Below are positions 6,131 through 62,267 of a DNA stretch of 64,000 nt, one piece after another. Within the stretch, counting starts at the first letter, position 1. Every line of letters starts with the position of its first letter. The translations under genes and the position numbers were made by a program. Source of the DNA: Lama guanicoe (Eukaryota); assembly GCA_013239625.1 (NCBI GenBank), contig MU053594.1, positions 274,355-338,354 on the forward strand, in the 5' to 3' direction. The notes under the pieces were generated by a model. That model did not search any database, was not told where the DNA came from, and saw only the letters and a program-made list of their open reading frames with translations.

Positions 6131-6429
6131 TCAGGAGTACTGCCAGATGGACCAGAGCGTGACCAGGGTGACACTGTAGGCCAGCACTGCCAGCAGGTAG
6201 ATGCGGAAGAGCAGCTTGTCCAGCACAGAGCCCACGCGCAGCCAGTCCCGGGCCACCTCTCGGCTCTCGTCCCGCTTCTCCAGGAAGTGCCGGATGGAGG
6301 TCAGCTCCTGCAGCAGCCCACGCATCGCCAGGGAGGCCTCCCGAGGTGGCGGGGGAGGGCTGCCTCTGCCCCTCGGGGTCTTCTCCAAGTCCTGGGTTCC
6401 CCCCAAATGGCTGCAGTGGTTTCCTATGT
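6131..6429 (-). CDS. HTR3A: HTR3A exon 9 coding part (MA helix, M4, stop)
   Basis: DIGNHCSH...LEKRDESREVARDWLRVGSVLDKLLF...WQYS-TGA; 299 nt; acceptor ctttcttctAG. Confidence 0.97.
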
Positions 6430-13769: not shown

Positions 13770-13805
<36 letters not shown>

Positions 13806-33610: not shown

Positions 33611-36600
33611 CTGCATGGGAGGAGAACACTCTGCATGAGCCAGAGACTTCGAGGGCTCCCCTGGACTTCCCACTGAAGCCGATGGCCTCATCCTTCAAGC
33701 AAGGTTGTAGGCAAAATGGGGCTGGGTTAGGATTAGGGAACCTCTCCCTGCCGCTGAGGGGAGGCAAGGCTGTCCTGAAGGAAGCCCTAGAGAACGTGGC
33801 GAGTCGGGTGTTGTGTAAGCAAGGTGTTTGGGCTCATCCATCCAGGAGATTTTCTGAGCTAGTCACTTAGCGCTCTAGGGGCTAGAGTAGTTCTTTTTTA
33901 AAAAATTGAGATGTAACTGACATACAACATTATATTAGTTTCAAGTGTACAACATAGTGATTCAATATTTGTATATGTTGTGAAATGATCACAGTAAATC
34001 CGGGTAACACCCATCGCCACACAAAGTCACAAATATTTGTTCTTGTGATGAGAGCTTTTGGGCCATACTCTCTCGGCAACTTTCAAGCATGGAACACTTT
34101 ATGAATCTGTGTGTCGTCCTCGCTCTGGGGCCATGCTGACTTCTGTGTCGTTCCAATTCTAGTATATGTGCTGTCAAAGGGAACTTTGGGATGATGTATA
34201 TACTTGCTCACATGAAGCAACTAGAACCCAAATACATACAAACTGCATGTGTGTGTGTGTGCACGTGTGCACAGGCACTGCACTATTCTGGAGTCAATGG
34301 CTCAGTCACTTCAGGGAACTGGCTGAAACTAGAAAATGACACAAGGGAACTGAGGGCTTGACCTCTAGGCTAAAATGGGGCTTTCTGGAAAGCCAGCAGG
34401 AGACGGTCTTCAGTCTCCAGGGAGGTAATGTAAAAGGCAGTGCAGAGGCTAAGCAGTGGATCTTTCCATTTTCTCACACAGCCTGCTGCCCTACCCATGG
34501 AACTGGCGCTGAGGGTGATAAAGCAAGATAAGGCAGGAGCCCCAAGGCTTCCCACAAACCTGTGACCCCGGCAGACTGGGTGCGGGGATCCACTCTGGGC
34601 CCACCAGCATCGGTGTCCCCTCGAAGGCACAGGAGGGTCTGCTCCTGCCGGCTGCACCGCTCGTCATGGAGGAATTTGACCAACAGGATGGACTTGGACA
34701 AGCTGAGAACCAGGAAGGCCATGCAGACTGTGAAGAAGACCCCTGCAGGAAGGAGCCGGAGGAGGCGGAGTTAGCAGGGCTCTCCGGGCCTCCTCCTTCC
34801 CCCCATCTGAAACGCAACATTGGATCTTTGACAGGAGTGACGGAAGATGCTCACCAATCAGCGGGGTGCTCACTGAGCTCCTGGGCACCTCATCAGACAT
34901 GTTGACCCTGAAGACCGTGTAGCCCACCAGCACGCTGGTCTTGAACACAACCCTGGCACGGCAGGTGGGCGGCAGGTAGAAGCTCCCCAGGTCCACGAGC
35001 ATCAGGAAGATGCTGGGAATCAGCAGACTTACAACATAGACCAGGGGGCGCCTGCGAATCACCACCTGGCAGGGGACAAGGGACCTACTGAAAAGAGGGT
35101 CTAAGCCAACGGACGAATGTGTAGCCAAACCCCAGCCAAGAACACTTCCTGCAGTCCCAACATTTTTGCATAAAGTGAAAAGTCTGTGTAGTTGAGAAAC
35201 AGGAGATCATCTTGTGGTTTAAAAAATAGGGGAAAAAATCTTTTAAGCTTTACATAAAGCTAATATTAATATTAATAATTATAATAATAAGTTATCATTT
35301 ATTTACCACTTGCTGTCTGCCAGGCACTAGACTAAGTGTTTCATATTTATTTATTTAATCCTCTTAACAACTCTGAGGACTGGGTGTCATTATCTCCATT
35401 TTACAAACAGGGAAACAGAGGTTCGTAGAGATGAAACTGCTGGTCCAAATTCACACAGCTGGTTAGGGAGAGACTGTTTTAAGACCAGGTCTTATACCCA
35501 AATCTTCCTTCTTAAACAGCTCTGTATGCAATACATCGTATTGGTTTGGGTTTAGCCTATCTTCTTACTGTGAGCGCAAACACCTTAGCACCTATGTATT
35601 GGTCAGAGTCTGGGCAGGAACAAATAGCACCATTAAATTGGGAAAGTTGAGGGGGGCTTGACAGGTGTGGGCAGGAGATAAAGAAATTATAAGAGGGAAG
35701 GCAGTGCTTCAGGGCTTGGGGGGACTGGCTGAGCTGTCCCTGAAGGGGCCAAGGGCTGGGAACGTGATTGAAACCTGGGGAGAGAAAACTGGGCAGAATT
35801 GTGGTTTCCTCTTTGGATCACAGCCAGCTTGGCAGGGAGAGAAACGGAGAAATAACACCCCACTCGCTCTCCCCCCTCCCTCCAACCTCCTGCCACTGCT
35901 CCACCTGCCAGCAACTGGCCCAACCTGACCAGGGGTCCCATCTCTGCAGGCCACAGCCCAGTTTCTAGGAGCAAACGTAGATTTGAGTGGGGAGCAACTG
36001 AAGATAGCTGGTGGGGCCTGCAGGATGGCTGGGGAGAGGGCTGCTGAGTGGCGTTTGTAGCTGGGAGTTGAAGTCTCATAAAATTATAATGAGTATTTTG
36101 CCACTTTTTTACATCTAGCTTCTCTGGGGTGGTGATAGGAAGCATCTGTAATTAACACAAAATCTATTCTCATCCTTCCTGGAGAGAAACCAGGATATGA
36201 CAGGGCTGCCTCCCCCAACCTGTGGACCCTTAGAGGATAAGAGCAGCAACTTTTTTAACCCCTCATGGGGCCAAAAATAATACCCACTTTATAGCAGGTA
36301 TTCAGTAAATGTTTACTGAACAAATGAATGTTCTGGGCCCTTTGCTGTTGCATTTGGGGAAAAAAATAATGTCTGAAACCTCCCATGGCTCTGATTTCTA
36401 TGTGTCAGCGTGCTAGGTAATTTTCACATGTGATGTGATTTGTTTAATCCTCACTGTGAGTTTTTTGTCAGGTGACATAGCATCTCCATCTTATAGATTA
36501 AAAAAAAAATAAAGCTCAGTCCTTAAGTAAGTTGAATAAGTGGCAGAGGTGGGATGGGCCCCCACATCTTCTGATTCCAAGCCCTGTGCTCTTTCCCACA

Positions 36601-42600: not shown

Positions 42601-45600
42601 ACCCTCCCACCCTGCCCCCGCCAACTACCACCATCACCAGCTGACTTTGTGCAGAAACAGCAGAGCTGAATGCTAATGATGAGTCCAGGGGCTGCAGGAA
42701 CTTGTTGCAGACCATGTGTCAAGACGGTTTGCCAGGAGGGAAGGAGGACGGCGCCGCTGGAGTGCAAAGCAGCATGCTTCACTGTCCTGCACACACCCCT
42801 GCCCCCTCTCCGGGCGCCTGCTGGGTAAATCTCCCTGTGAACAATGCAGCCAAACGCATTCCCAGTGGTGCATCTGAGAAGTTCCTGTTCTCATGAGGCC
42901 CTTTTAGGGTAGTTGTTTTTTCTGATCCAGAAACTGTCAGTGGTCTGTGAAGATCCTGAGGGTGATTTGTTAGCTAATCCCTCAAGATGTGCAAGTTAAT
43001 AATATGATAATTTTATGCATTTGCATCTGGAATTAATTAATAATTTACTCAATTGCAAACAGGACATTAATGTTGAAGAGACACTCGTTTCCAAATTTTT
43101 TACTATGCTGTGTGTTTCTTTTTTTTTCCTCTATCGGTAGTAATTAGAAGTGAGGATATCAGGGTCTGGGAAATAGCTCAGTGGTAGAGCACTAGCTTAG
43201 CATGCACGAGGTCCTGGATTCAATTCCCAACACCTCCAATAACAAAAAAAAGTGAGGATGTTGTATGTACTGAAAGGCTTGAGGATTCCTGCTGTGGTGG
43301 CTGGTTCAGGTCTCTGTGTCTGAAGACCATTTTCTTTATATTCGTATGGAAAGGGCTACAGCAGTTCACCATCTGTGACTTAACCTCTGGTCTCTGAAAT
43401 GTGAGTGTTAGAGACACTGACTTGCATTTCTGATGACAACAAATGGGAATATGCAAGAGAGCAGAGATTCCTCAGCCCAACAGAGAAGGTCAAAGATGGC
43501 AGAGAAGCAGGCAACTGGGACAGAAAGGGGGCGGACCTACATTAAACCGAATCTGGGCAAAATCTCCAGCGCTGCTCCGCAGGATGTTATATGTTGAGGA
43601 CACAGAGAGAAGTTCCCACTCACTGTCGTTCAAAAATGCCTTTTTGTCATGCGTGGTGTCTTCTCTGCTCCTCAGGAAGGCCAGGTCTACATCTTCCACT
43701 GAAAACAACAGAGAAAAACAGTTGAATTGCCCACAGAGAGAAGCACCAATATCAACCCACCTTTCTAACTCCGAATTCAAAGCCTTCCTTATATTCCTGC
43801 CCCGGTGTAACAGTCTTACTAAGATGGGGTCGAATATAATTATTTTGAATTAGGGGTAGGGATGTGGGATAAATACGTTCTAGTCATTGTAAAATCACAA
43901 CTCTGAATTATGGGTTTGTATCCCATTATCTGTAGAATGATGGAGCTGGTCCTGTGACTTCTACAACTTTCTCATGGCAGTGGAGGCCTTATGTTATATT
44001 TCCAAACCAACAGAAGCAGTGGGCTATATCTCTGGGTACCACACTGAATTTACCCTGAATTTAAGAGGAGCCAAGTAACTGCAAGAAGAGATTCTGATTT
44101 ATAGAAAGTCAATTATGGTAAGAATGAAAGAGACCTGAGGGATGGCATAATATAATTTCACCTGTGTGTGCCAACCTAGCCCAAGTGTGTTTGCCCACTA
44201 GCAGACTACATCTCTTATGCCTTACCTGTGTGCAGAATGCTACTGAAGGTTAGGCTGCAATTCTGGATATCAAATGGAAAAGCATATGTCTCTAAGTTGC
44301 ACGCAGAGACCACCTGGATGGGCTTAGAGTGCTTAATGGTCCCAGATGAATTCACATATACATAGGGAAGGTCGGGTGATCTTTCAATGTCCACACTATA
44401 TGAGACACAAGAGGTCTTGTTACAGAGAGGGCTTTTGTCCTTCCAACACATAAACAGAACTGATTATGAAATGATAATGACCATAACATCCAAGGCTAGC
44501 CTAGAAGTGCAAAGACAGAATCACATTTGCCAGCAGATAATTCACCCTGGCAAAGGTGGGTTCTGCACATGACAGCCTCATAAGTCAACTCACTTGCTAC
44601 TCTTTAAACACAGACATAGTCCATGAGCAGCATCAAGCATTAGTAATCAAACCTGTATCTTAAGTGATGTTAACTCATGGTACTTCTAACCTGAATATTC
44701 CCAACAATCTGTTCCTCTTCAAGTTGAGGAAACAAGAAATAATAACAATAACATAAAGTAATCAGCAACTGGTCTGAATATTCTAAAGTCTATAAACCCC
44801 ACAGAAATACACTTACAACTCATTAATGATGATATCAGGGGCCCAGATGGCACTTAGAGGTAGGGAGATCTCGTCAATCTCATCAAACATGCTGGAGTTC
44901 CAGGATAAAAACTCATCATCCCAAACCTGTTAGGAGTAGCCAGAAAAGAAACATCACAAAAGGACAATGTCAACGTCACCAAAGAACTGAAGGATTTGAA
45001 TGAATACTTCAGTTCATCAGCCTGTTAGTACTATTAGAGAAGACTTTCCAGCCAACATCTAAAGATGGTTGTCCCAACTAGAAACCACCGCCATATATCT
45101 TACACAGGTTCTAATAAAGCAGGTCTGCTGCAGATGCAAGAATCTATAAACACAAAGGTAACACCTATTCCTTAGAATAATGACATTTTGCAACAGATCG
45201 AGCTCAGGAGTCCAGCATGCACAGAAGGAAACATGATCATTTACCTCACGGTACCAGACACTTGTCTTTAATTTTTGATTCTGTGCATCCTGCAAAGCAA
45301 AAAGAAAATTCACACCAAATCTTAGAATGTCAGTAAATCAAAGCTTAATTCAATGGTATGACAATTCAGAGGAAGAAAATTGAATCCAACTAAATAATGC
45401 TGATGTTAAAAACATTATTTTGACTCTTCAAGATCTGAGGATTCTCAGTTCTTATGACACACACCTGTCACTATGAGCTTTATTATCTAAGACAAAATGA
45501 CACCTTAACTGCACTTGACATCTTAAATGATTTGCTAGTCTCTTTCCAACTCTAATTAGTTACCCTGTCATTAATCAGGCTGAAAGATGATATGTAGTCT

Positions 45601-48600
45601 TAGCCAAGTCTGGACTAAAAAGATGAGACCAAGCTTTTATTTGAAATCAAGATGTTATTCATAATCTTTGAATGAGTGTTGTCTCACCTGCTACTGGCAG
45701 TCATTCCTGGTGTTACCTTATGTTTGGATTTCTCCACTTATAAAACAGATGGTTGAGTTTAACCCAAATGAGGTATATTTTTGGTGATATAAATAGATGT
45801 GATTTTCCATGTCTGCAATGAGTCAGTATCTTTTTTAAAAGGATCCCCCAAAACATCAAAAAGAAACCCTCTTTACTAATTTTTTTCATATTGAATCTAG
45901 TAAACGAACATTCTAAAATTGCTATGTTCTTAGGGATTAAAAGAAAAGGAATATCTCACAACAAATACAAACATCAATTCAAATGGATCATAAACCTAAA
46001 TGTAAGAGCTAAACTATAAAAGTCTTAGAAGAAAACATAGGAGCTCATGTTTTCATGACTTTGAATTAGGAAACAATTTCATAGCTATGATACCACAAGC
46101 ACAAGCAACAAAAGAAAAAATTAAAATGAAATCAAAAGAAAAAATTTTGATTTCATCAAAATTTAAAACTTCTGTGCTTTAAAAGATGCCATCAGGAAAT
46201 CAAGTGACAACCCACAGTATAGGAAAAAATATTTGCAAATTTCATATCTGATAAGGGGCTTGTTCCAGAATATATAAAGAACTCTTACAACTCAACAATA
46301 AAAAATTAAATAACCCAATTTTTAAGTGAACAGCAAAGGACACAATCAACAGAATGAGAAGGCAACTCACAGAATGGGAAACAATATTTGTGGATCATAT
46401 ATCTGATAAAGGATTAATATCCCGAATAGTAAAGAACTTTACAACTCAAAACAAACAAAAATCCCTATTTAAAAATGAACAAAGTGACATACACTTGAAT
46501 AGACATTTGTCCAAAGTAGACACACAAATGGCCAATAAGCCTGTGAAAACATGCTCAACATGACTTCTATGGACCAAATCGTGTTCTTCCAAAATTCACA
46601 TGGGACTGTATTTGCAGATAGGACTTTTAGGAGATAATTAAGGTTAAATGAGGTCACAAGGGCAAGACCCTAATCCAATCGGATTTGTGACCTTAGTGAA
46701 AAAGAAAGAGAGAATGACCTCTCTTCCTCCTCTGTGTGAGGACACAGTGAAAAGGCAGCCACCTGCAAGTCAGGAAGTGAGTTCTCACCAGGAGCCAAAT
46801 TGCCCGGAACTTTGATCTTGGACTTCTCAGCCTTCAGAACTGTGAGAAATAAATTTCTGTCATTGAAGCCACCCAGTCTATGGTATTTGTTATGGCAGTC
46901 GGAGTTGGCTGATACAATCTCTATTCTTTAGGAAAATACAAATCAAAACCACAATAAAATTCCATTAGCATGGCTATGTTTTTTTTTTCAAAAACAGGCA
47001 GAAAATAAGTGTTGGTGAGGATAATTGGAACTGGTATCCTTGTGCACTACTGGTGGAAATGTAAAATGGCACAGCTACTATGGAAAACAGTGTGGCAGTT
47101 CCAAAAAACTTAAAAAGAGAATTACTGTATGGTCCAGTAATTCCGCTTCTCAGCATTTACCCAAAATAATTGACAACAGGGACGTGGACAGATGCTTGTA
47201 CTTCCATGTTCAATAGCAGCATTATTCACAATAGCCAAGGGGTGGAAGCAACCCAAGTGTCAATCAAAAGAAGAATGGATGGACAAAATGTAGTATATAC
47301 TTGCAATGTACTATTATTCCACTTTTAAAAGGAAGAAGATTCTAATACATACTACAAAACGGATGAAGCCTGAAGACATTATGCTAAGTCTCAAATGAGC
47401 CAGTAACAAAAGGACAAATACTATACGATTTCATTATATATGGTCTAGGTACCTAGACTAGCCAAATTCATAAAGACAGAAAGCAGAACGGTGGCTTCCA
47501 GGGGCTGGGGAATGGGAAATGGGGAGTTGGTGTTTAATGGGTGCAGAGTTTCAGTTTTGGAAGATGAGTTCTAGAGATGGATGGTGGCGATGATTACACA
47601 ACAATGAGCATATATTTAATGCCATTGAATTGCACACTTAAAAAATGTTAAGGTGGCAAATACTATATTATGTGTATTTCACCACAAGCAAAAATAAATT
47701 AAAAATGAGCAAAGGACTTGAATAGGTAGTTCTCCAAAGGAGACGCACAAATATGGCCAATTAGCACTTGAAAAGATGTTCAACATCATTAGTTATCAGG
47801 AAAGTGCCAATTAAAACCACAGTGAGACACCACTTCACCCCATTGGGATGGATAAAATTAAAAAGACAGAAAGTAAGTGTTGGAAAAAATATTAAAAAAT
47901 GAGAGCCCTCCTACATTACTAATAGGTTGATAAAGTGGTGCAGTCACTTTGTAAAACAGTGTGGTAATTCCTCAAAATGCTAAACATAGAGTTACCATAT
48001 GACCTAGCAATTTTACTCCTAATGTATAACCAAGAGACTTGAAGACGTAAGTCCACACCAAAAACCTGTACGGAAAGAAAAAGCACACCTGCACAAGAAT
48101 GTTCATAGCAGCATTATTCACAGCAGTCAAAAAGTGGAAATAATCCAATGTCCATCAAGTGATGAATGGATTTTTAAAATGTGATATGTATCCATTCAAT
48201 AGAATATTTTTCAGCACTAAAACCTAATGAAATGTGATACATGCTACAACATGGATGAACCTTGAAGACATTATGCTAAATGAAATTCAGTTACAAGAGA
48301 CCATTATTGTATGATATCGTATACCTGAAATGTCTAGAATAGGCAAATTCTATACAGATATAAAATCGATTATCGATGTTTGCAGATACTAGCTAATATA
48401 CATACATAAACAGATAAACAACAAGTTTATACTGTATAGCACAAGGAACCATATTCAATATCATGTAGTAACTTACAATGAAAAAGAATATGGAAACTAA
48501 TATATGTGTGTTCCTATATCACTGAAGTATTGTGCTGTACACAAGAAATTGACACAACATTGTAAACTGATTATACTTCAGTAAAAAAAATATATATATA

Positions 48601-51600
48601 TATTAAAAAAGTAGATTCGTTTTTGCCTAACACTGGTGGGGGGGGGAGTGCAGAATGTGACTGAGGTATGAGGGTTCTTTTTGAAGTGACGAAATGCTCT
48701 GAAATTAGACAGTGGTGATGGTTGTACAACTCTGTGAATACACTAAAACCACTGAACTGCATACTTTAAGTGGATCAATTTTGTGGTTGAGGCCTACTTT
48801 AATAAAGCTGCCATTTAAAAAATGTATTAAAAAAGAAAAAGGAAACCATCTTTGAAGACATTTCCAGAGAATTCATAAGTAAGAAGGTTGATACAAACTA
48901 TTGATGAAACTATTCTTTCCATGTATAATCCATCATTAAAATTGTTTCAAAGAGAACAAAAGACATGGAAAATTCAAGATGAAAACATGTGAAATAAAAT
49001 GTGCTGATTTTGGTTCAAGCTAAGGAGTCACTTAAATAACTTTTGTACTTCTGTAATATTTAGCATAATACCAAATTTTGGTAAAATAATAGTTTGGGGA
49101 GTTGCAGAATGAAAGCAAATAACAGCTCAATTTTCCTCCCCAGAATGAGACATATAAAATTAATTATCCAGTCCATTATCCAACCACATCAAAAATAACT
49201 CTTTGTGCATAGGGTAAGAACTACCACTCTCTTCAATCCAGGTTGGGTGGGGGAGGTAGGGAGCTCCCAGTGATATTTATTCCTTGTAGGGGTGCACCTG
49301 GAATTGTGTAATACTCAGACTACAAAGGGGTTACACAGGTTAGCATCATTTGAAAGAGAAATAATAAATTTCTTAAAGTCCCCTCTTTTTGCAATCAAGA
49401 AAGCAAGTTGCTATTGAATAAACATTACTAGGTACCTTGAGAAAGAAGAGATTGTGCAGATACAGAGTGACTCTGTGTAAGTGGTTCAGTAAGGCTAGTC
49501 TGAGTGAACTTGCTCTATAGGTTTTTATGAACTTCAAATAGACACTTGGGAATGGCAGGTTTTAAAGTGATATACAATTGTCCCTTGGTGTCCTCGGGAG
49601 GATTAGTTCCAGAACCCCCTGGATACCAAAACCTATGGATACTCAAGTCCCTTATATATAAAATGGAGATGTATTTGCATATAATCTACACACATTCTCT
49701 TGTGTGTTTTAAGTCATTTCTAGATTATTTACGATGTCTAATACAATGTAAATGCTGTATACATAGCTGTCAGTGCATGGAAACTTCAAATTTTGCTTTT
49801 TGGAAATTTCTGGAATTTTTTAAAAGATATTTTTGATACACAGTTGGTTCAGTCTGTAAATGCAGAACCCAAGGATGTGGAGAACTGACTTGTACAAAGT
49901 GAAAACACTGAATTCACAAGTATTTCCCCAAGGAAACTGTTAGAGGAGGTACAGAGGGGACTCCAAGCCAAGACTGGCTGTAGAGGGGTCACGCTAGTGT
50001 GAAAAAGACCTCTGAGCTCAGGGTTAGGTGACACCACTCTCCTCCAAGTTTTACCAGCTGAGAGATCCTGAAATAGACCAGGTCTCACCCACTAAAGCAC
50101 AGCTCATTGCAGTCAACGAGGGCTCCCCAATAATGGGGAAAAAGTCTAAAGTGCAGCCTGTATCACCAGGAAATACACCTTTTAACCACTCTTTCATAAC
50201 AAATATACTTTCACATCTATGCAATGTCCTGACCAGTTTCTTTATCTGTCACACCAAGTTGCAAACGCATCTCGTTGACTTAGGCGTGTGGCTAGGGAGG
50301 AGGTCTCTGTGTTTTCATGTTTCATTTTCACAGTCATTTTCTCCAGTTGGCTCTTATTAACCACCATGTTGATGCCCATCCCTTTGTCATGCTACATGTA
50401 ACAACAGTGTTAAAATTTTTTCCCCCTAACTTCTTTGAGGGGTATCTGGGCGGATTCGTCATTCAGCCCTAAAGAACACAATGTCAAAAAGAAGTTTGAG
50501 GCTAAAACTGAATTTTTTTTTTTTGTCAAGGGAAACAAGTTTCTCAATGCCAGCTGGTGAACATAATTGGTTCTCTGGTGGCATTATTCACAGCTTTTCC
50601 CTCTGTGTATCTCTCTCGTGCTTTTTTCTTTAGATACCTTCCATCTTGCTTGTTAAAAGCAAAGGATATTTCAGAGAATTGGAATTCATTAGTCTTCTTA
50701 ACAGAGGGAGTCTATTTAGCTCTAAATTGGTGGTTAGCAAATATACAGATAATTCCCGCACATTCTTATTTATCTTCCCCAGTTCTGAAGACTATAGAAA
50801 CAGATGCTTCAACGTCTGGCTGGGAGCCTCTAGTCAATGGACTGGAATACAAAGGTATTTGGGATTCGGAATCGACAAAACTCAATAGAAACAAATTGAA
50901 ACTCTTCACTGTTGAGCAGATTATCTCTATAATCAGATTTCCCTAAGGTACTCATAATACCCAGAAATTCTAAGACAAGACTGTAGTCTTTCATGTAAAC
51001 AAAACAGGAGGCAAAACGTTATAATGGAACCGAGGTACTGTGATGAAAAGCTGAGCTGAAAGCTCTCCACTCCAAACAAAAGTTGCCAACAGTTCAGCTG
51101 CTGGCAGATGCAGCCAACAAGTCATCTATTCACACTGGGAGTGTCCTTGTCTGAGCAAAATCTGTGCGCGATGTTACCAAGTCCTTCACACTGGCCCACT
51201 GGCCCTGCCTCTGGGATGGACTTTAAGATTAGCCCACCTGAATGTAATAGAGACATTTGCAAAGCGTATTAGACTGAAGTCATTCATGAAGACAATCCTA
51301 GAATTGTACTCACAGATCTTAATCAGTTAGCCAAATATCCACCCAGCATCTTTGAAGTAAGATACGTTGTGCTACATATTGTGGGAAATACAAACGTGAG
51401 TTAGAAAATCCTTCCGTCGTGTAGCTATTGATAAATTAGGGTATGTGATATTTTAACAAATAGCCATGTGCATTAAGAAATATACATACTTCATTGGGTT
51501 TAAAAGAAGGAGACTGCTGTCAGTTCGAAGAAATGAGGAAAATTTCTTTTAGGAGCTGAGATTTGAAGGACAATAGTATTTTATAGATGGAGAAGGAAGA

Positions 51601-54600
51601 GGAAAACATTCAGTGGGGGAAATAGCATGTAAGCAGCATACAGGCAGGAAATAACAAGGAGTTCAAGTTTATTGTAGCATTGAGCATACACAGGAGATAA
51701 AGTTAAGACAGTAGATAGGGATAAAACTAGAGGGATGGACTATAAGATTTTTTCACATTTCTGAAGGCAAGTTTTCCATATTCAATAAAATGTCTAACAT
51801 ACTCTTGTAAAAATATTAATATATTCCGCAACGATAGAGAAAAACTTATCTTGAAAAAATAATGGTGTTCTCCTTACCTACCATAATGGATACGATTTTA
51901 TTTTCTTTTATTGGAGTAGGAAGAAAGAGTTACATTAAAAATTTCAACTTGATACTGTTGTTCCAAGGGAAAATATTAATATAAAGAGTTTACTCCTGGG
52001 GGGAGGGCATAGCTCAGTGGTAGAGCACATGCTTAGCATGCACAAGGTCCTGAGTTCAATCCCCAGTACCTCCATTAAATAAATAAATAAACCTAATTAC
52101 CTTCCCTTGCCAAAAAAAAAAAAAGACTTTACTCCTTTTCTTCATTTATCTCCAAATAAGCCTCTAAAGGAAAGTCTGAGCAATTCCACTTTACCTTAGT
52201 CAATATGAAGTCAGAAAGTGGAAGGATGAGGAGAGACCTAGAATTACTCAAGGCCGATTATACCTCTGCCCTGGAGTTTCATATGACACAGCTCATATCG
52301 TGTCTTTATTCAAATCATGCTTTTCCTATTGGATAACGTCCAATAAACAATATAGGCATAGTAGCCCACTGACAAGTATATAGCAAGAACTAGTATCTTT
52401 TAAGTAGGTGAAGATACAGCCCCAGAAAATTGTCTCCAAAATTCGAGTTCAACATCCAATTAGAAAAGAGATTCAAAGGCGTTTTCTCTTGGAGTTCTGT
52501 GTAAGACTAGGTCTTTTGAAGTAAGAGCGGGTATTTTCTGGCATTTAATTAAACAACATTTTCTAGGATCTTAGACATAGTACTTCTACTAGTGTGAGTG
52601 GAAAAATAAAGCTGGGAAAAGTGAAATTGTTTGCTAAAAGGGGGATTTTTGTGTACCATTCAAATGTACCTGCTTATGAAGAAACAATGAGAAGGGGTTT
52701 AACTATAGGAAAATTATGCTAAAATTACTTGCATCAGATAAAAATAACAATTTAAACACTGTTAGAACAGATCAACTATACTGCTAGTTTCAAACTATTT
52801 TTTTTCATCAATTTCAATGCCCAATTCTCTGTCAAAAAAAATCAGTTTATGATTCATAGGATAGCACTAAGATATTAATATAGAAAAACACCTCCATTGA
52901 AATGAAGAGAAATTATTAAATTATTTTAACAAAGTACATTAAGATAATAAAATTGTATTGTAGGGTACATTATGTATGTTAATTTAAGGGGAACAGGTAA
53001 ATGGAATTTTACTGTTGTAAGATTTGTACATTTTATATGAAGGATAATAACATTAATCCTAACTACATTGTATTAAGTTAATACATTGTATTAGGGTGTG
53101 GAGATCCCCAAAGTAACATCTAAAAATGAAACACAGAGGGATTGCTAAAAAGCCAATTTGATTTTAGAGGAACTAAGAGGAGCAGAAAACAGATGAGACA
53201 ACTAAAAACAAACAGCAAAATGTGACAATGAATATATATATGTTCATGTATAACTGAAAGATTGTGCTCTACACTGGAATTTGACACAACATTGTAAAAT
53301 GATTATAAATCAATAAAAAAAAACCCAGCAAATGGTATCGGTAAATGGACAAAAACCTTAATTAAAATGCATAGATTGACAGATTAAAAAAAGCAATATT
53401 CTGGAATACTACTCAGCAGCAAAGAGGAGTGAATTATTGATACACACAACAACTTAGATGTTTTAGGGAGCCCTGTGGTGATGATTGTGTAGCTTGATGT
53501 GGTGGTAATATTGGTTATGCAAAGCTACCCATATGATAAAATTACACAGAAGCACCCCCCTCCACACACACACACACACATATACATATACACAAAAGAG
53601 CACATGTAAAACTGGAGAAATCTGAATATCCACTGTATTGTATCAACAACAATTTTCTTTTTTTTTTAATCTTTAAAATGTTATTCATGTGTTTCACCCA
53701 TGAGCCCCATGGAGTCTCTGAAGGTTTAAACTATTTTTTTTTATTAAAGTACAGTCAATTACAATCTGTCAATCTCTGGTGTCCCAGTCATTCATATACA
53801 TACATATATTCGTTTTCATATTTTTTCCATTAAAGGTTGTTAACAAAATATAACATCATCTTCCTAGTATTGATACTGTACTATATTTTTGGAAGATGTT
53901 AACATTAGGGGGGCATTTGGGTGAAGGGTGCACAAAATCTCCCTATAAGTTTGTTTGCAACTTCCTGTAAATTTACAATTATTTCAAAACAAAAAGTTGG
54001 GGGGAAAAAAGCAAGATCAAACTATATGCACTCTCTAAGAAATAACTTTGCATACAATGTCCCAGGAGTTGAAAAATAAAAGAACGGACAAATATATACC
54101 ATGCAAAAAGTTATCATGAAAAAAACTTCAAGGAAAAGAATATTATCAGAGATTAAAAAAGGGTATCTCATAATGGTTAAGGGTTCTGTTTGTCAAGAGA
54201 CTTACAATCTTAAAAGTTTATGAGTCTAATAGTAGAGCAGAGAAATACACAAACCAAAATTATAATTGAGAATTTTAATGTATCTCTTTATGAAATTAAT
54301 AGAACAACTAGACAAAAATGTCTAAGTTATAGAAGATTTTAACAATACTGTAAAAACATTTATTGAGTTTACACTTATGGAACAGTGCACCTTTCTATTC
54401 AACACAGTACTAGAAGTTTGAGCCAGTGCAATAGGCAATAAAGGGAAAGAAAACGTATAAAGATTGGGGGAAAAAAGAAGTAAAATCTTCATTATTCACA
54501 GACAACAAGATCTTCTACATAGAAAATCTGAAAGAATCTACAAAAAAAAAGACTCAAAAATTAATGGCATGGCAGAATCACAGGATCCAAGGCCAATATA

Positions 54601-57600
54601 TATATGCTCTATATATTTTGTATGCGAGCAACAGAGACCCAAAATTAAAATACAATTTTAATAGCATCAAAAATGTGACATACTTAGGGATAAATTTAAC
54701 CAGATATGTGCCAAACACTGAAAAATACTGAACATTCTGGGAAGAAAGTAAAGAATTAAATAAATGGAGATGCACACTGTAGTTGTGGATTGCAAGCTTG
54801 TTGTTAAGATGTTGATTCTCCTCAAATTGATCTACAGATTTAATGCAATCTCAAAAATTCTGGCAGTTTTTAAATAGTGAAATTGATGAACTGATTCTAA
54901 AGTATGTATGAAAATGGAAAGTACCTAGAAGCATCAAACACCACTTAAACAGAAGAATAAGGTTGGAAGACTAACACTATCTGATTTTAAGACTTCTACA
55001 ATGTACAGAAATCGACACAGTATATTGGCATAAGGAGAAATATGTCGACACAGAACAGAATCCAGAAATAGACCAAAACTATATAAAGAACTCTTGGAAC
55101 TCAGTAATAAGATAATAAACAACTCTATTTTTTAATAAATAAAAGATTTGAGTAAATATTTTACTTAAAAAGATATACAGTTGTCAAATAAGCACATGAA
55201 AAGATATTCAACATCATTAGTCTTTAGTGAAATGAAAGTTTAAAACCACATTGAAATACCCCCACAAATCGACTAGAATGATTAAAATTTAAAGAGATTG
55301 ACAGCATCAAGTGCTGGCAATCATGTGGAGGAACTGAAACTCTCATACGTTGCAGGTGGAATGCACAATGACACAGCCACTTTGGCAAACAGTTTGGCAG
55401 TTTCATATACAAAGTTATATAGACTTATACATAGACTTAAACAACTCAGCAATTCCACACCTAAGTATTTACCCAAAAGAAGTGAAAACATATGCAAAAG
55501 CTTATAGTGGCTTTATTCATAATTGCCCCAATCTAGAAAGAACTGACATCACATGGCAAATTGATAAACAAACTGCAGTAATGTGTACAATGGAATACTG
55601 CTCCTGATACATGCAACAGTACAACACGGATGGATCTCAAAGGCAGAAGTCAAAAACAAAGGGTAAAATACAATATGATTCCATTCATATGACATTCTGG
55701 AAAGGCAAAACTATAGGTAGAAAAAAATCTGTGGTTGCCAGGGACTGGAGCTGGGGGAAAGGAATAGCTTTAAAAAGATGAATTTCATTCTATGCAATTT
55801 ATACCTCAAATTTTAAAATGCATCAAAGTCCATAGGATGCAGTTCAATTAGTGCTTAGAGGAAAATTATAACTTTAAATGTTAAAATTAGAAAAGAAAAA
55901 GGGTTTAAAAATCATGATATAACTATTCACTTTAAGAAACTAGATAAAGAAGAACAAATTAAATTCACAGTAAGTAGAAGAAAGGAAATAAGGATGAGAG
56001 CAGATCTCAGTGAAACAGAAAACAATAAGGAAAATTCAAAACCAATATTCGGTTCTTTAAAGAAATGAATGAAACTGATAAACATTTGGCAATATTGGCC
56101 GGGGGAAAATAAGAGAAAACCCAAACTACCAATATGAGGAATGAAAGAGGCAGTATTGTTGGCCATTCTTTGAACATTAAGAGAATTAAAAAGGAATATT
56201 GTGAGCAAATTAACTTTCAACTTGGATGAAATAGACAAATTCCTTGAAAAATACAAATTACCAAACCTAACACAAGAAGAAATAGAAAATTTGAACATTC
56301 CTATACATGCTAGTGAAATTGAATTCCTATTTAAATACCCTCCCACAAAGAAAATGCCAATCCCAGGTAGTTATACTGGTGAATCCTATCAAACATTAGG
56401 AAAAGAAAATCCCCTTATTACCCAACTCCTTCAGAAAATTGAGAAGGGAACATTCTCCTGACACCAACATAGCCCTGATACCAACATAATCCTGATACCA
56501 AAACCAAACAAATACGTTACAAGAAATGAAGCTACAGCTCAATGCACCTCATTATCACAGCTGCAATCTATAATAAGTAGACATTCACCTCCAGAAATGA
56601 ATAAAGAGGATTATATATCAAGATCAAGTGGGTTTTTTCTAAGAATGCAGGGTGGTTTAATATTTGAAAATCAATCAAAAATAATTTACCATGATAACTG
56701 CATAAAACAGGAAAAGCATATGATCGTTCAAATTGATGGAGAAAAAAATTTGATGTAATTCAACATCATTCATGATTTAACAAAAAAATCTCTCAGCACA
56801 CAAGAAATGAGGGAACTTTTCAACCTGATAAAGAACATCTATGAAAAATCTATAGCTAACACCAGAGTTAATGGTGAAAGATCTTTGCCCCTAAGAATGG
56901 GAACAAGGATGTCTGCTCTCACCACTTCCGTTAACATTGTGGTGGAGGTCTTAGGCAAAGCTACAGGACAAGATAAGAAGCATGAAGAGCACACTTATCA
57001 GCAAGGAAGAAGTAAAACTATTTGCAGAGGACATGATTGTATACATAGAAAATATTAATCTACAAAAAACTACTGGCATTAGTTAAGTTCATTTTGCAAG
57101 GTCACGGGACACAAAATCAATGTACAGTAGCTCACAGAGAAAAAAATGTGACAGTGAGTATATATATGTTCATGTATAACTGAAAAATTGTGCTCTACAC
57201 TGGAATTTGGCACAACATTGTAAAGTGATTATAAATCAATAAAAAATGTAAAAAAATTTTAATGCAAAAAAAATCAATGTACAAAATGGTCCTATTTCTT
57301 TATAATGACAACAAAAAACTACAACAGTTTAAAATTTAAGTAATTTTTATAGCAGCAACAAAAATACTTTCAGATAAACTTAACAGAAATAAGTGTAAAA
57401 CTTCCATATTGAAAATTATAGAAAATTAAAAATAAGATGATTGATCTGCAGAAGACCCAAATAAATGGAGAGACAAACCATACTTAAAGGCTGGAAAACT
57501 CAATATTTTTAAATGTCAATTCTCCCCTAAATTTCTCTGTGGATCACATACCATTCTAAACAAACTCCCAGGAGGATTTTTTTTTAATGAAAATTGACCA

Positions 57601-59954
57601 GCTGATTATAAAATTTATGTAGAAGTAAAAGGTCTTAAAAGCCAAAGCATCTTAAAAATGAAGAACAAAGTTCAAGGACTTACTATCTGATTTCAAGCGA
57701 AATAGTCCCATTTATCAATTAACTTAGTTTTCAGCCAAGACATCAAAGCAATTTAATAGGGAAAGAAAATCCTCTCCAAAAAATGGTGCTGGAACAAATC
57801 TTTTCTAAATGCAAAAAACCAACCAAAACAAAACACAAAACAACAACAACAAAACAACATATGCCTCACACCATCACAACAATTAATTCTCAATAGATTG
57901 TAGAATTAAATCTAAGGAGCTTAAAAACTATAAATCTTCTGAAGAAAAATACAGGCAAATATTTTTGTGAACTTGAAGTAGCAAAAATTTCTCAGACAGC
58001 ACCCAGAAAGCACAAATGATAAATAAAGAATTGATAAAAAATGGATTCATTAAATTTTAAAATGTCTGTTCATCATAAGACCCATTAAGAATATGAGTAG
58101 GAAAGCCACAGATTGAGAATTCACAGTATATAGATGACAGAGAACTTGTGTCCAGAATATATAAGCAACTCCTATATATCTGTAATAAAAGGACAACCCA
58201 CACAATAAAAAAGAGGAAAAGACTTAAACAGGTCCTTCACAAAGAAAGATATGTAAGCCAATAATCACACAAAAATGAGCCCCTAATTATTAGCATTGGG
58301 AATTACAAAGAAAAACCACAATGAAATATCATTACACCGTTTCCAGAATGTCTAAAATTAAAAAGACTGATAACACCTAACGTTGGTGAAGATGTGGGGA
58401 GATGGGAACTCTCATGGCTGATGGGCGGGAGGGTATATACCATGTACAACCAATTTATAAATCAGTCTGGCAGTTCCCATTAAATGTACAACTATCCTAT
58501 GAGAAGTGGCCATTATTCCACTTCTAGGTTTTACCTAAGAGAAATAAAAATATATGTGCACCAAAGGAATTGCACAGAAATAGCAGCCTTATTCATAAGA
58601 TCCTAAAACTGGAAAAAAAAAACCCAAATGCTTATCAATAGGAGAATGGATAAACAAAGCACGATATAGCCATAATGAAGTACTACTTATCAATAAAAAA
58701 AAAACCTACTGATATGCACAGGAACATGAATGAACCTCAAAAACATTATGCTGAGTGAAAACTCCAGACACAATAGCGTCCATAAAAGTATGAAGCTCGA
58801 GAACTGGCAAAAATAATCTCTGATAAAAGAGATCAGGACAGTGGTTGTCCCTGTGGAAGGAGGGGATGAGGACCGACTGGGAAGGAAATGAGGGATCTCT
58901 CCGGGGTGGTGGAAATGTTTGACGTATTGATAGGGATGTGGATTACGTGGGTACATGCAATTACCAGAACTTGTTGAGCTGTGCACTTAAGATCTGTGCA
59001 TTTCGGTATCTGTATACTATACCACAATTAGAAAAAAAGTTTTTAGAAGTAGACTGAAAAATGATTATTGAACTACTTCAACAACAACAAAAAAGCTCAG
59101 TAAAGTCTGCTTTTAAAAAAAATCAAATTAAATTTGGAATCTATATTGAAGACTACGCAATTAAGAAAAAGGAGGAAGAAGAAGCGGAGATAATTTGATG
59201 AGCCATCATCTACTGAGGGCTCACTAAGACCTCTGCTAACTGCTTTACATTCATTTTTCTCCTTAATTCCCACAACAACCCATTTTTCATAGTAGGAAAG
59301 ACGTGCTTCAATAACCAATACTTCCCAACATTCTTAGCATATACCTTAGGTATAAAGTCCCTTGTAGACTCAGGATACCAAGACACTTTTTTCCTCTTTT
59401 TAAAATTTCAGGCAGTACCTGGTAGATGTTTCCTAAACCTACTATTATCACAAAGAAATGTGAACCACAGAAAACAACACCTATTATAGCTGTTGGTTTC
59501 AACAGTGCTCATAAAATACATACTGTGATCTATGACCACAATTCTTAAAATATCTTCCGTGAAATTCATATTTCTAGACTACCTGCCCCTCACGATGTAA
59601 GCTGGGGGCTAGAAAGCATGACTTGTCTAATAAATATCCACCCCCCTGCCAGCTCACTGCTCAGATGAGCCTAGCACAGTGTCTTAATCAACTCAATGAG
59701 AGTCTCAAGAATGAAACCCCTTGACCCCTGTGTAAATAGCAGGTCGTCTCTCAAAAGAATGGTAGGAATAGGAGACAGTGAGGTGGTCCTTACCACGTCC
59801 AGCACTGCGTAGACAAACACATCCAGGTAGACAGTGGTGGCCCGGGTCCAGTTGTGAACCGGCCTCACCTCCTTGCAGTATTTCTGCAATAGTTGTTTGG
59901 TGAGATGACGCAGAGCAGAGCTCCTGGGATGAGGGGCGTCAATGGCCAGGATTC
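33375..59954 (-). CDS. HTR3B: 5-hydroxytryptamine receptor 3B, exons 2-9 (5'-partial; exon 1 not in window)
   Basis: Exons of 161,45,110,170,158,211,183,236 nt join in frame at GT-AG boundaries. Cys-loop [15 protein letters not shown], CRAR motif and M1-M4 are present. Confidence 0.97.
33894..34095 (-). mobile_element. LINE-1 3' end fragment
   Basis: ttgagatgtaactgacatacaacattatattagtttcaagtgtacaacatagtgattc (reverse L1 tail). Confidence 0.75.
34560..34742 (-). CDS. HTR3B: HTR3B exon 8 (M3)
   Basis: GVFFTVCMAFLVLSLSKSILLVKFLHDE...GVT; 183 nt. Confidence 0.96.
34855..35065 (-). CDS. HTR3B: HTR3B exon 7 (M1, CRAR, M2)
   Basis: VVIRRRPLVYVVSLLIPSIFL...CRARVVFKTSVLVGYTVFRVNMSDEVP...TPLI; 211 nt. 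Confidence 0.97.
37718..37867. mobile_element. hAT-Tip100 MITE (MER91A-like)
   Basis: gaagggccccaggcttggttt...ttgaaattctcaataattt...ttttcactttgcaccaggccctgcaaatcatgtacccggtcct. Confidence 0.7.
38430..39087 (+). mobile_element. MaLR internal 3' remnant plus MLT1C-like LTR (LTR 38654-39087)
   Basis: gggttaagac...gaatttgggggagtcagaggg purine tract directly before tgtactgggttga...ggcagccctaggagactaacaca. Confidence 0.8.
40318..40387. repeat. (CT)n pyrimidine microsatellite
   Basis: Direct read. Confidence 0.9.
41868..41909. repeat. (GA)n(GT)n compound microsatellite
   Basis: Direct read. Confidence 0.9.
43161..43249 (+). mobile_element. Short tRNA-Ala-derived SINE/retrocopy with A tail
   Basis: tagctcagtggtagagcactagcttagcatgcacgaggtcctggattcaattcccaacacctcca + A tail; TSD aagtgaggat on both sides. 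Confidence 0.8.
43541..43698 (-). CDS. HTR3B: HTR3B exon 6
   Basis: VEDVDLAFLRSREDTTHDKKAFLNDSEWELLSVSSTY...FAQIRFN; 158 nt. Confidence 0.97.
44226..44395 (-). CDS. HTR3B: HTR3B exon 5 (Cys-loop)
   Basis: VDIERSPDLPYVYVNSSGTI...[25 protein letters not shown]; 170 nt. Confidence 0.97.
44817..44926 (-). CDS. HTR3B: HTR3B exon 4 (VWDDEFLSWNSSMFDEIDEISLPLSAIWAPDIIINE)
   Basis: 110 nt; donor TT|GTAAGT; translated by hand. Confidence 0.96.
45245..45289 (-). CDS. HTR3B: HTR3B exon 3 (DAQNQKLKTSVWYRE)
   Basis: 45 nt, AG/GT boundaries. Confidence 0.95.
46565..46916 (+). mobile_element. MaLR LTR (MLT1A-like) inserted in L1
   Basis: ctatggaccaaatcgtgttc...cagaactgtgagaaataaatttctgtcattgaagccacccagtctatggtatttgttatggcag. 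Confidence 0.8.
48372..48607 (+). mobile_element. Younger L1 3' end inserted in older L1
   Basis: cagataaacaacaag...ctgtatagcacaaggaac...gacacaacattgtaaactgattatacttcagtaaaaaaa. Confidence 0.75.
49575..49892. mobile_element. TcMar-Tigger element (MER2-like)
   Basis: TA-flanked caattgtcccttggtgtcc...ccagaaccccctggataccaaaacctatggatactcaagtccctta...ggatgtggagaactgacttg. Confidence 0.8.
50420..51285 (+). mobile_element. Decayed DIRS-like retrotransposon pol fragment (RT thumb/connection, RNase H, start of methyltransferase-like domain)
   Basis: Ordered motifs LNWWL, IETDASTSGW (TDASTSGW at 50800-50823), GIWDSE..N.LKL, TVVFHVNKTGG (50980-51012, same frame past stops), LKALH..LADAANK (51056-51121, +1 frame), IETFA (51247-51261). 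Confidence 0.7.
51325..51760 (-). mobile_element. L2 LINE 3' fragment
   Basis: gagctgagatttgaaggac...aaaacattcagtgggggaaatagcatgtaagc L2-like; boundaries approximate. Confidence 0.55.
51998..52121 (+). mobile_element. tRNA-Ala-derived camelid-type SINE (Vic-1-like)
   Basis: ggggggagggcatagctcagtggtagagcacatgcttagcatgcacaaggtcctgagttcaatccccagtacctcc...aataaataaacctaattacc + A tail; 15-bp TSD aaaga(g/c)tttactcct. Confidence 0.9.
52930..59040 (+). mobile_element. Patchwork of old L1 ORF2/3'UTR fragments
   Basis: ORF 56201-56461 (NLDEIDKFLEKYKLPNLTQEEIENLN) is L1 ORF2p; further L1 RT and 3'UTR pieces throughout. Confidence 0.85.
57127..57269 (+). mobile_element. Short 5'-truncated young L1 3' end
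   Basis: Highly similar to 260-388; perfect 14-bp TSD aaaatcaatgtaca at 57113-57126 and 57270-57283. Confidence 0.85.
59794..59954 (-). CDS. HTR3B: HTR3B exon 2 (GILAIDAPHPRSSALRHLTKQLLQKYCKEVRPVHNWTRATTVYLDVFVYAVLDV)
   Basis: 161 nt; acceptor ctcttttccAG, donor GTG|GTAAGG. Confidence 0.95.
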
Positions 59955-62267
59955 CTGGAAAAGAGAACTGTCATCGTGAGGATGAAAATAAGAGGAACTT
60001 AGCATCTTAAGGAGACACCGGACTGCTCAGGGCTTGGTGGCTACTAGCAGCATGCAGTTTTCAGCTTCCCTTAATCTGCTTAAGTTCACAGCGAGCTGGG
60101 GGGCTTCTTGGCAGACACTTATTTAAAAGAAGCTGATGGCCTAAGTGCCCAATGGAGAAATCTCATTGTAAACATAAATAAATCAGACCCATCTTCAAAG
60201 ATGCAAGCTGCACCTACAATTCCATTTTCACAGCAATTGTGCATCTTGGAGACAACATCCTTTCTGTATTCCTGTATCACCCCTTCCTGGTACCTAGGAA
60301 ATCTTCCTATGCACTTAACCAAAATGTCACACCCACCTTGGATTTTTCTTTTGATTTTCCATTTGTAATCATTTGTAATTCCAAATTACATAGAAAACCC
60401 AAGCAGAAACATGGACAAACCTCTGAACCCAAAGATCTGTGTGGATTTCTAAGTCATGGGATTAATGAGATTCCAATTCATCCTTTTCTCAGCAAAAAAT
60501 ACATCTGTTCTCTCACTCGGTCTGTCTTTAGATAAAAGGCACTTGTCAGAAAATGAGATCTTCATTTTGGGAAATTCTCTGTGGTTCCAGGGAACAACTA
60601 TTTCCTATATGACCTAGGAATCCTGATTTGTAGAGGAGCAGTGATTGGTGTTGAGGCCGGGGAGGCAAGGGGGAAAGAAGCAAGAGAAGTGAGCACCAGC
60701 AATTGGAAGTGACAAATCTGTGAGGGCTTTCTCGGAATTGCAGAAAGATATTTTGTTCACAAGCTCTGCCAGCCCCTGGGGGATTCAAAGCTTCGCAAAG
60801 TCATTGGGCTGAATCAAATTGCACCCCTCCTGCCACAGCGCAAGGGTGAAATCTATCTGTAGTGTCCTGTGCATGAATTCACCTCAGCTCTCAGTGGTTT
60901 TGACGGTTATTTTGATGAGCTGCTGACGGTGCATTGGATACAGCAGGAAACTGTAAATGAGATATCTTCTCCCCATGCGACAATCCTGTTTATACCCATT
61001 TCTTTATGAACGACGCCATGTCACTTGCCACCACAGGCAGCAATTTCTATGATTTATCAGTATCACTGTGACCAACATGCTCACAATGGCGCTGGAGGTG
61101 CAATTGCAGGCTCATTGTGGGCAGTGGAATATTCACATTTATTACCATCAGAACCAGGAATCTAACGAGCATTTTAACTCCCTAACTATTCACCCGACGA
61201 GATGCTGGAAGTGACAGAAGCTATTCAGGTGTGTAGGACCGAGGCGGGTGGTTCGCATCAGGCATCACCTTTAGTTTTTGTGAACTGTGATCATCCAAAA
61301 AAATGTGCTATGAATCTCTCTACCCGAGACCATTTCTTGCTGAGGGACCCCAGGGGAGAGAAGTCAGAAGCCCAGAGCAAAGCCAGTCTGGTGCTTTTCC
61401 TGCGAACTTCGCTTTGGGCAACTTCACTTTTACTCGCTTGGAAGCCTCCAATTCAAGTCCCAGTTGGGGAAACTCTGAAATGTGTATGTTTCAATACAGG
61501 AAACTACCCAAGACAGAGCTAAGACATAATTCTGAGAAATGAATGTGTGTTGCCCACATCCTTGGCTCATAGAGACTCAAAGCCCCCTCCTTAGGCTCCC
61601 CCACGGATAAACACATATTTTCTGGAACGTGTCAAAGTCTTTGGGTAAAGAGAGAATGTTCTGGAAGCTAGAAATAGGAATAAAAGAGAAACAGGCAGTG
61701 ATAGGAGAAAAATAAGAAGCAAACAAAAGTGTGCTTAAATAAACTACAGGGGGAAAGAATTCTTTGTTTAAAATGGGAAGAAATAATAAATTACATTTCT
61801 GCTATGAATGCAAATTTGCCTGAGGAGAAAGATCAATTACAGGAGTGAGATTAAGGATTTAAGTGACCATTAATTAACAGTAAATTATGCCCCTTGAAAG
61901 CTAATGTGACATTCACACAAGCACTAAACGACTCACAGTTCAGCGATGTTTCAACAGACACTGATGGAAGCCATCAACAGACCCAGGAAAGATTCCTCAC
62001 TAGCCGGCCCCCTTGAATGCTAATCATCAGCTTCAAATAATTCACTTGTAAGATTTCTGGAAAGCAGACTGCGTTAGGAACTGACCTGTGAAGCACTTTC
62101 AGGTGAAGAGAGATTTTAAAAAGATAAGAACACAATAGAATTACTCCTTTGCTTTCTTTGTTTGAATGAGTTACTCGCATACACTCTTACAGTGTTCTGG
62201 GCGCTTTGATGAAAAGAGCTCTTCTTGCTTTGCTGAGTATACCATCCTTAGGATTATGAGAGAGCCA

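Follow-up and report, generated by a model that had tools for sequence, protein, structure and literature searches.

A DIRS1-like pol fossil antisense in an early intron of a 5-HT3B-like gene of Lama guanicoe, with signs of DNA-level constraint

Introduction

Why would a piece of a retrotransposon listed as absent from mammals still be legible in a mammalian intron? The question is raised by a 64,000-nucleotide stretch of the guanaco (Lama guanicoe) genome, hereafter the window (assembly GCA_013239625.1, contig MU053594.1, positions 274,355 to 338,354). Near position 50,500 of the window, antisense in an intron of a gene that fits HTR3B, lies an open reading frame (ORF) that was originally predicted, from the letters alone, to be a relic of the reverse transcriptase (RT) and RNase H coding sequence of DIRS, a tyrosine-recombinase retrotransposon, kept by constraint or exaptation. 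In the available part of Chalopin 2015, DIRS elements are listed as absent from mammals. Kojima 2018, as far as its text is available, lists no DIRS in the human genome apart from the LAP2alpha domains carried by TMPO and ZNF451, and the available text of Abascal, Tress and Valencia 2015 (PMC4495291) derives these two domains from the ORF1 of a DIRS1-like element.

Our best explanation overall, which we hold with moderate confidence, is that the locus is a DIRS1-like pol fossil, dead as a gene, whose core was probably exapted as a non-coding functional element.

Results

The open frame is part of a DIRS-type pol match

The frame is open from stop to stop for 144 codons, contains no methionine codon, and ends with the TAA at 50944-50946 (Table 1). 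The peptides quoted for this frame in the original prediction lie inside it. As had been claimed, the same frame runs on through this TAA and a second one at 50971-50973 into the stretch TVVFHVNKTGG, for 16 further codons. We searched this read-through translation, with X at both stops (P0001), against 1.84 billion representative proteins with phmmer. There were 268 proteins at E<=1e-3, four at E<=1e-10 and two at E<=1e-30. Three orthologue clusters are followed in the list by proteins 24-37% identical over query residues ~10-168, the range that most of the matches cover and that includes both stops; the best non-orthologue, P0019, is 33% identical over 114 amino acids.

From 25 long phmmer matches, all retroelement pol proteins, we built a profile of 612 positions and compared it with the six-frame translation of the whole window, stops being read as X. 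The sole significant match is at 50527-51015 on the forward strand, with 81.6 bits, an independent E value of 1.3e-26 and alignment to profile positions 251-411. The connection helix, the L.WW, TDAS..GW and G.W motifs, the N..L.L helix and the ..T.V..(I/V)NK.GG strand are all in register, and every gap is in-frame, with zero frameshift over 489 bases. The matched part, ~160 codons or ~490 bases, comprises the post-RT connection and roughly the N-terminal two thirds of RNase H. In the same alignment, the catalytic glutamate of IN.LEL is replaced in the fossil, and the second in-frame TAA falls on the conserved aspartate of the DN.T motif.

The match is narrower than the 50420 to 51285 first proposed. 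The RNase H and connection content stands, but the RT core does not: in three frames of both flanks (48500-50560 and 50980-53000) all profile scores were negative, with no RT core, RNase H C-terminus or methyltransferase motif. The letters of the proposed outlying motifs GIWADS, LKALH...LADAANK and IETFAK are present, but these flanks give only negative scores. Weak tblastn matches that recur at 51217-51327 (each E>0.1) align IETFAK not to IDLFA but to the IN.LEL helix, which is already in the main block, and we took them as chance. The RT core, methyltransferase and tyrosine recombinase of the element were found neither in the window nor, with the full DIRS protein P0100 as query, in the genome. 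Because what is left is a 490-base fragment of great age, this absence is uninformative on the original element.

For the ORF alone, neither Pfam nor the PDB sequences returned anything useful. A better match to another kind of pol had been named in the original prediction as what would speak against it; at E<=10 the ORF has no Pfam RT_RNaseH, RT_RNaseH_2, RNase_H or RVT_3 match, and hence no sign of membership in Ty3/gypsy, BEL, ERV (endogenous retrovirus) or cellular RNase H families. A 147-codon open frame lies in AT-rich intron sequence at 55930-56370 on the reverse strand, without a Pfam match at E<=0.01; the fossil is thus not alone in this region in having an ORF this long.

The relatives of the fossil have the DIRS layout

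DIRS1-like elements combine RT, RNase H, an adenine-methyltransferase-like domain, a tyrosine recombinase and a LAP2alpha-like ORF1. The same layout is described in the available text of Abascal 2015 (PMC4495291). We scanned 16 of the matches first, and in 13 of them the RVT_1 domain stops a few tens of residues short of the matched part. P0098 carries RVT_3 and Dam besides RVT_1, and P0100 has, in order, RVT_1, the matched part, Dam, Phage_int_SAM_1 and Phage_integrase. One of the 16, P0040, is an unrelated low-complexity fungal wall protein and was discarded.

A Pfam tally covered the 42 remote matches of at least 500 amino acids, out of 144 remote matches listed. RVT_1 was present in 38, RT_RNaseH in 12, Dam in seven, RNase_H in four, RVT_3 and PCIF1_WW in three each, LAP2alpha in two (N-terminal to the RT) and Phage_integrase in one; the DDE integrase rve, looked for among the 14 Pfam families listed, was present in none of the 42. 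The 12 RT_RNaseH matches are weak, and one relative matches DNA_pol_viral_C. The tyrosine recombinase was seen in the one nearest intact relative that is long enough. Since the relatives have RT, RNase H, Dam or PCIF1-like domains and a tyrosine recombinase, and lack rve, the fossil is DIRS-type. It is almost certainly a remnant of a DIRS1-like pol, "DIRS1-like" referring to the domain architecture of these relatives. Three of the relatives (P0032, P0054 and P0147) are gene models fused to host domains (F5/8 type C, hSac2 and PARP), probably chimeras of gene prediction.

The fossil is single-copy

In the 2.05-Gb host assembly, P0001 finds this locus alone, and a DNA search with 50527-51015 returns the self-match only. 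P0100 matches 37 places in a stricter first look, of which 36 match its RT part only, at 22-30% identity, as generic RT sequences, probably of ERVs; its RNase H part is matched by the fossil locus only. The RNase H-to-recombinase part of P0100, searched alone, again finds the fossil and nothing else. The DIRS fossil is thus single-copy in this genome.

No terminal repeats are recognizable around it, as would be expected of a fragment. The one repeat pair of any size, 104-base direct repeats at 48487-48590 and 53219-53322 (+), is 81% alike and stands ~2 kb either side. We considered these repeats as element termini and rejected them: they belong to an unrelated high-copy interspersed repeat with an A-rich tail, which has 3595 first-look candidates in the genome and 40 other scored matches 86-93% identical, and the copies that bracket the fossil region are young insertions. 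A tRNA-derived short interspersed element (SINE) probably starts 1 kb downstream of the fossil, with a tRNA-like sequence at 52003-52074 (+; Rfam tRNA, 40.7 bits) as its head.

Orthologous frames change in a non-coding manner

A collection of 5.8 billion proteins holds 17 related ORF translations for P0001, and the frame-3 translation of 50634-50888 finds seven, four of them new. Their identity to the window goes from 96% down to ~55%, and their N-terminal parts run into the window's upstream flank in other frames; judged by these alignments, they clearly represent this locus in other genomes. Against the DIRS profile, several score as high as the window (P0006 with 85.0 bits, P0003 with 84.5 bits).

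A frameshift-aware alignment of 22 proteins has every one of them shifting frame in the T run or the CT tract upstream of ~50634. Of the 20 orthologues that cover the core (50635-50916), five shift frame within it (P0010, P0012, P0018, P0167 and P0168), and in a further five, frame 3 is the one used throughout the core. Ten codons before its own stop the window has a CAG, and it is here that 10 of the 12 frame-1 orthologues that reach this point end, after FT(V/I)E or, in P0006, FPVD; P0010 reads on, and P0012 is already out of frame. The T run (50505-50525) and the CT tract (50596-50634) vary in length in nearly all orthologues, and the frame upstream of the core differs with them.

For a codon-position test, minimal nucleotide changes were inferred from the translations, and unique variant sites were counted per visible opportunity by position of the DIRS frame; we left out 18 ambiguous codon changes and all high-scoring segment pairs below 50% identity. 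The values at positions 1, 2 and 3 are 0.245, 0.34 and 0.314 for the frame-1 proteins and 0.429, 0.331 and 0.356 for the frame-3 proteins. Neither set of orthologues has a third-codon-position excess. A protein role is unlikely, because this excess is absent, frames differ between orthologues and the window frame has no ATG; these same features, with flat codon-position rates, set the locus apart from a domesticated coding gene derived from a transposable element (TE). No protein of the collection corresponds to the downstream ORF 51055-51330, which is uninformative on conservation to the right of the fossil.

The core changes more slowly than its flank

Divergence per visible site was compared between the upstream flank (U, 50300-50511), the N-terminal part of the frame (N, 50512-50634) and the core (C). 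For U, N and C it is 0.196, 0.063 and 0.032 in P0004; 0.149, 0.065 and 0.041 in P0003; 0.078, 0.064 and 0.027 in P0002; and 0.459, 0.211 and 0.104 in P0013. In eight of the nine orthologues that have both U and C, divergence is higher in U, and the core has two to six times fewer substitutions. Counted as variable three-base bins in eight proteins, U has 53 of 60 (88%), N 25 of 40 and C 33 of 94 (35%). Indel and frameshift events per aligned kb, in 10 proteins, number 20.4 in U, 23.7 in N and 2.4 in C, so that the core has ~8 times fewer than U; of the five events in C, four are in P0018. In the same species pairs, then, as measured on translated ORFs, both substitutions and indels are rarer in the core than in the adjacent DNA. 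The core looks like a conserved non-coding element, and DNA-level constraint on it, or exaptation, is in our judgment rather probable. The original claim of constraint or exaptation thus keeps some ground, but not as constraint on a protein.

A search of metagenome contigs for orthologous DNA, with a single protein as query, found none. Six RNA-seq runs, from other organisms or metagenomes, contain 7-12% of the sampled 31-mers of 50400-51300, which is no evidence of expression or conservation.

How far the fossil has decayed

When each intact relative was left out of the profile and scored over the same 161 positions, the scores were 133-217 bits with a median of 184; the fossil has 81.6. We calibrated this difference by random decay, with substitutions only, of back-translated relatives (25 relatives, four replicates per level). 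The median score is 121 bits at 0.1 substitutions per site, 77 at 0.2, 40 at 0.3 and 5 at 0.5. By this calibration the fossil has taken ~0.2 substitutions per site since it was coding, with a range of ~0.1-0.3.

Discussion

What kept the fossil legible

The history that we favor would run as follows. A DIRS1-like tyrosine-recombinase retrotransposon, whole or as a piece, would have inserted antisense into an early intron of a 5-HT3B-like gene in an ancestor of several mammalian lineages. All its recognizable parts would then have decayed, except the ~490 bases of pol that hold the connection and most of RNase H. As a gene this piece is dead: it lacks a start codon, its RNase H glutamate has been replaced, and of the two stops that interrupt it one falls on the DN.T aspartate. 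Its legibility would come from purifying selection on the DNA itself over the core, ~50635-50916, which would have been exapted for a non-coding function, most likely the cis-regulation of the HTR3B-HTR3A locus, where it is a candidate element.

Several observations weigh against this history. The calibrated ~0.2 substitutions per site could, taken alone, fit neutral decay over ~100 million years (My) in a slow lineage. All our rates come from parsimony on translated ORFs compared with the window, not from DNA, and ORFs are recorded only when open, an ascertainment bias. The flank that serves as local control holds the T run and low-complexity sequence, which misalign easily and may mutate faster. 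A Fisher test of variable bins in U versus C gives p 2.5e-11, but its rows are related species and its independence is overstated. P0011, which has only 10 U codons and was not included in the bin and indel counts, has 0 in U and 0.018 in C. An Rfam search of the fossil found no family, the tRNA-like SINE being the only match above gathering score in 49500-52500, and folding of the core RNA is not significant on either strand (z -1.45 and -0.15).

These points feed the most serious rival, that of a plain neutral relic: a functionless DIRS pol fossil, inserted in a stem eutherian, that happens to lie in a slow-mutating, indel-poor patch, with a flank whose rate reflects microsatellite-like sequence and misalignment. 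The T and CT runs, the biased sampling of ORFs and a decay level that neutral change could reach in ~100 My in a slow mammal all agree with it. So does the LAP2alpha exon of ZNF451, which the available text of Abascal 2015 (PMC4495291) gives as eutherian-specific, implying DIRS activity near the eutherian stem. However, the excess of flank over core in all but one orthologue, the contrast in variable bins, the low indel density of the core and the unbroken register with the profile count against it; moreover, the fossil is the sole non-RT DIRS match in 2.05 Gb, which would be odd if relics of such age usually stayed legible. We consider it unlikely, though worth keeping in view. An older insertion kept by selection fits better, because the core is several-fold slower and has no frameshift over 489 bases at this level of decay; the age of the fossil we infer from the same data.

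Selection on a protein is much harder to defend. The CT tract with its AG at ~50634, directly before the best conserved part, resembles a splice acceptor, and the stretch from there to the stop shared after ...FTVE might be the terminal exon of an unannotated forward-strand gene, encoding a peptide derived from RNase H. The shared stop, a frame open over 94 codons in many assemblies, and the two domestications of DIRS ORF1 in mammals described in the available text of Abascal 2015 (PMC4495291) are in its favor. Against it, frame 3 is about as conserved as frame 1 (92-94% identity in P0014-16 by BLASTP versus 91-93% in P0002 and P0003), codon positions are flat, the frame switches inside the core in a quarter of the orthologues that cover it, there is no ATG, and no orthologue match is a named or annotated protein. 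The peptide itself would be a partial RNase H fold with its catalytic glutamate replaced. We regard such an exon as very improbable. Even less credible is an origin outside DIRS, as a chance ORF or a fragment of an ERV, Ty3/gypsy, BEL or hepadnaviral element. The lack of a Pfam match to the ORF itself, the weak RT_RNaseH matches and the single DNA_pol_viral_C among the relatives would suit it, but the profile E value, the Dam or PCIF1-like, LAP2alpha and tyrosine-recombinase domains of relatives without rve, and the confinement of P0100's ERV-like matches to the RT part, when the fossil matches in the RNase H part, speak strongly for DIRS.

Returning to an exapted core, a stronger version is possible, and we offer it tentatively: the core may be a deeply conserved element, eutherian-wide and possibly pre-amniote, that acts as a putative enhancer or silencer, or as an antisense non-coding exon, in the control of HTR3B-HTR3A, and no DIRS pol remnant of this genome would be better preserved.

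Relation to known DIRS remnants

The pol region of the fossil is the same as in the DIRS1-like retrotransposons of fish, amphibians and non-avian reptiles, which Goodwin and Poulter in 2001 and Piednoel in 2011 are said to have described, and its motifs have the same order and register. Unlike such intact elements, the fossil has ~160 codons, lacks the RT core, methyltransferase, recombinase, ORF1 and terminal repeats, and is single-copy and non-coding. It also resembles exapted conserved non-coding elements of TE origin, in which a short TE core stands in otherwise unrecognizable DNA in or near a neuronal gene; the POMC enhancer, reportedly derived from a CORE-SINE, is an example. The present case is known from sequence alone.

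Closer parallels come from the human genome. In the available text of Yao and Frith 2021, DIRS occurs at 20 non-overlapping sites (minimum E 3e-45) and Ngaro at four, and that of Frith 2022 counts five pre-tetrapod and 37 further pre-amniote DIRS fossils, whose strong conservation is read as exaptation. These, as described in the same available texts, are likewise remnants of DIRS pol or other ORFs, old and present in few copies, in non-coding DNA, found by comparing DNA with protein; they are often near neuronal genes and strongly conserved, a likeness to the fossil in the HTR3B intron. They differ in being human and of demonstrated pre-amniote age, whereas the present fossil is not human and may or may not be among their sites. 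The searchable text names ERC2, NFIB, MLLT3, RSU1 and WWOX and no HTR3 gene, and one supplement has no DIRS or HTR3 entry; the full site lists may include the locus. In our literature search no paper linked HTR3B with a DIRS fossil. The LAP2alpha domains of TMPO and ZNF451 are also DIRS1-like leftovers kept by selection in mammals, as the available text of PMC4495291 has it; there, however, they are coding exons derived from ORF1 (gag), with dN/dS of 0.16-0.38, and the guanaco fossil is RNase H of pol without a coding signature.

This kind of element has been known since 2021-22. The fossil is not a new kind and leaves the picture of DIRS history unchanged, which weakens the novelty first claimed for it. 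What it adds is one more well-documented, legible, single-copy DIRS pol fossil in a mammal, with signs of DNA-level constraint, and a concrete candidate regulatory element at a locus of two pharmacologically important serotonin-receptor genes.

The host gene and its neighbor

The fossil lies antisense in the large intron region between the exons of the host gene that match Neur_chan_LBD profile positions 3-44 and 55-90 (Table 1). Downstream in tandem, at 6134-15114 (-), comes another Cys-loop receptor gene, which shares family and strand with the host gene and has Neur_chan_LBD and Neur_chan_memb exons. In its exon at 9910-10284, ~54 of 59 residues (~92%) are identical to 5-HT3A in PDB, against 33 of 59 in the corresponding exon of the host gene, and the gene with the higher identity is probably the HTR3A orthologue. 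The host gene fits HTR3B, because it is a 5-HT3 paralogue directly upstream of HTR3A and the tandem order is, as we take it to be, HTR3B and then HTR3A. The original placement, antisense in intron 2 of HTR3B, survives in orientation and gene, but not in the number of the intron, which may be 2 or 3; an exon of ~10 residues between the flanking exons was not located.

Table 1. Features of the fossil and of its host gene (window coordinates)
Feature	Position	Strand	Basis
Fossil of a DIRS-type pol, covering the connection after RT and some two thirds of RNase H	50527..51015	+	profile search, phmmer
144-codon open frame without ATG; in most orthologues a stop comes 10 codons sooner, at the CAG of the window	50512..50946	+	ORF list, orthologues
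Second in-frame TAA, at the DN.T aspartate	50971..50973	+	profile alignment
Core, slow to change; few substitutions and indels between orthologues, no codon-position bias	50635..50916	.	orthologue alignments
Upstream flank, local rate control; fast-changing, ends in a T run of variable length (~50505-50525)	50300..50511	.	orthologue alignments
Pyrimidine-rich CT/T tract ending in AG; indel hot spot where the frame changes; putative likeness to a 3' splice site	50596..50634	+	
Host-gene exon in an open frame, Neur_chan_LBD profile 3-44	59674..59970	-	E 3.2e-5
Host-gene exon, Neur_chan_LBD profile 55-90; next exon found downstream of the fossil	44816..44929	-	E 7.5e-9
Host-gene exon, Neur_chan_LBD profile 103-152; 33 of 59 residues identical to 5-HT3A in PDB	44218..44463	-	profile and PDB comparison
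Host-gene Neur_chan_memb exon	34667-35206	-	profile search

The composition of the window changes sharply at ~44000: in 2-kb windows, GC content is 0.43-0.59 over 1-44 kb and 0.31-0.43 over 44-64 kb.

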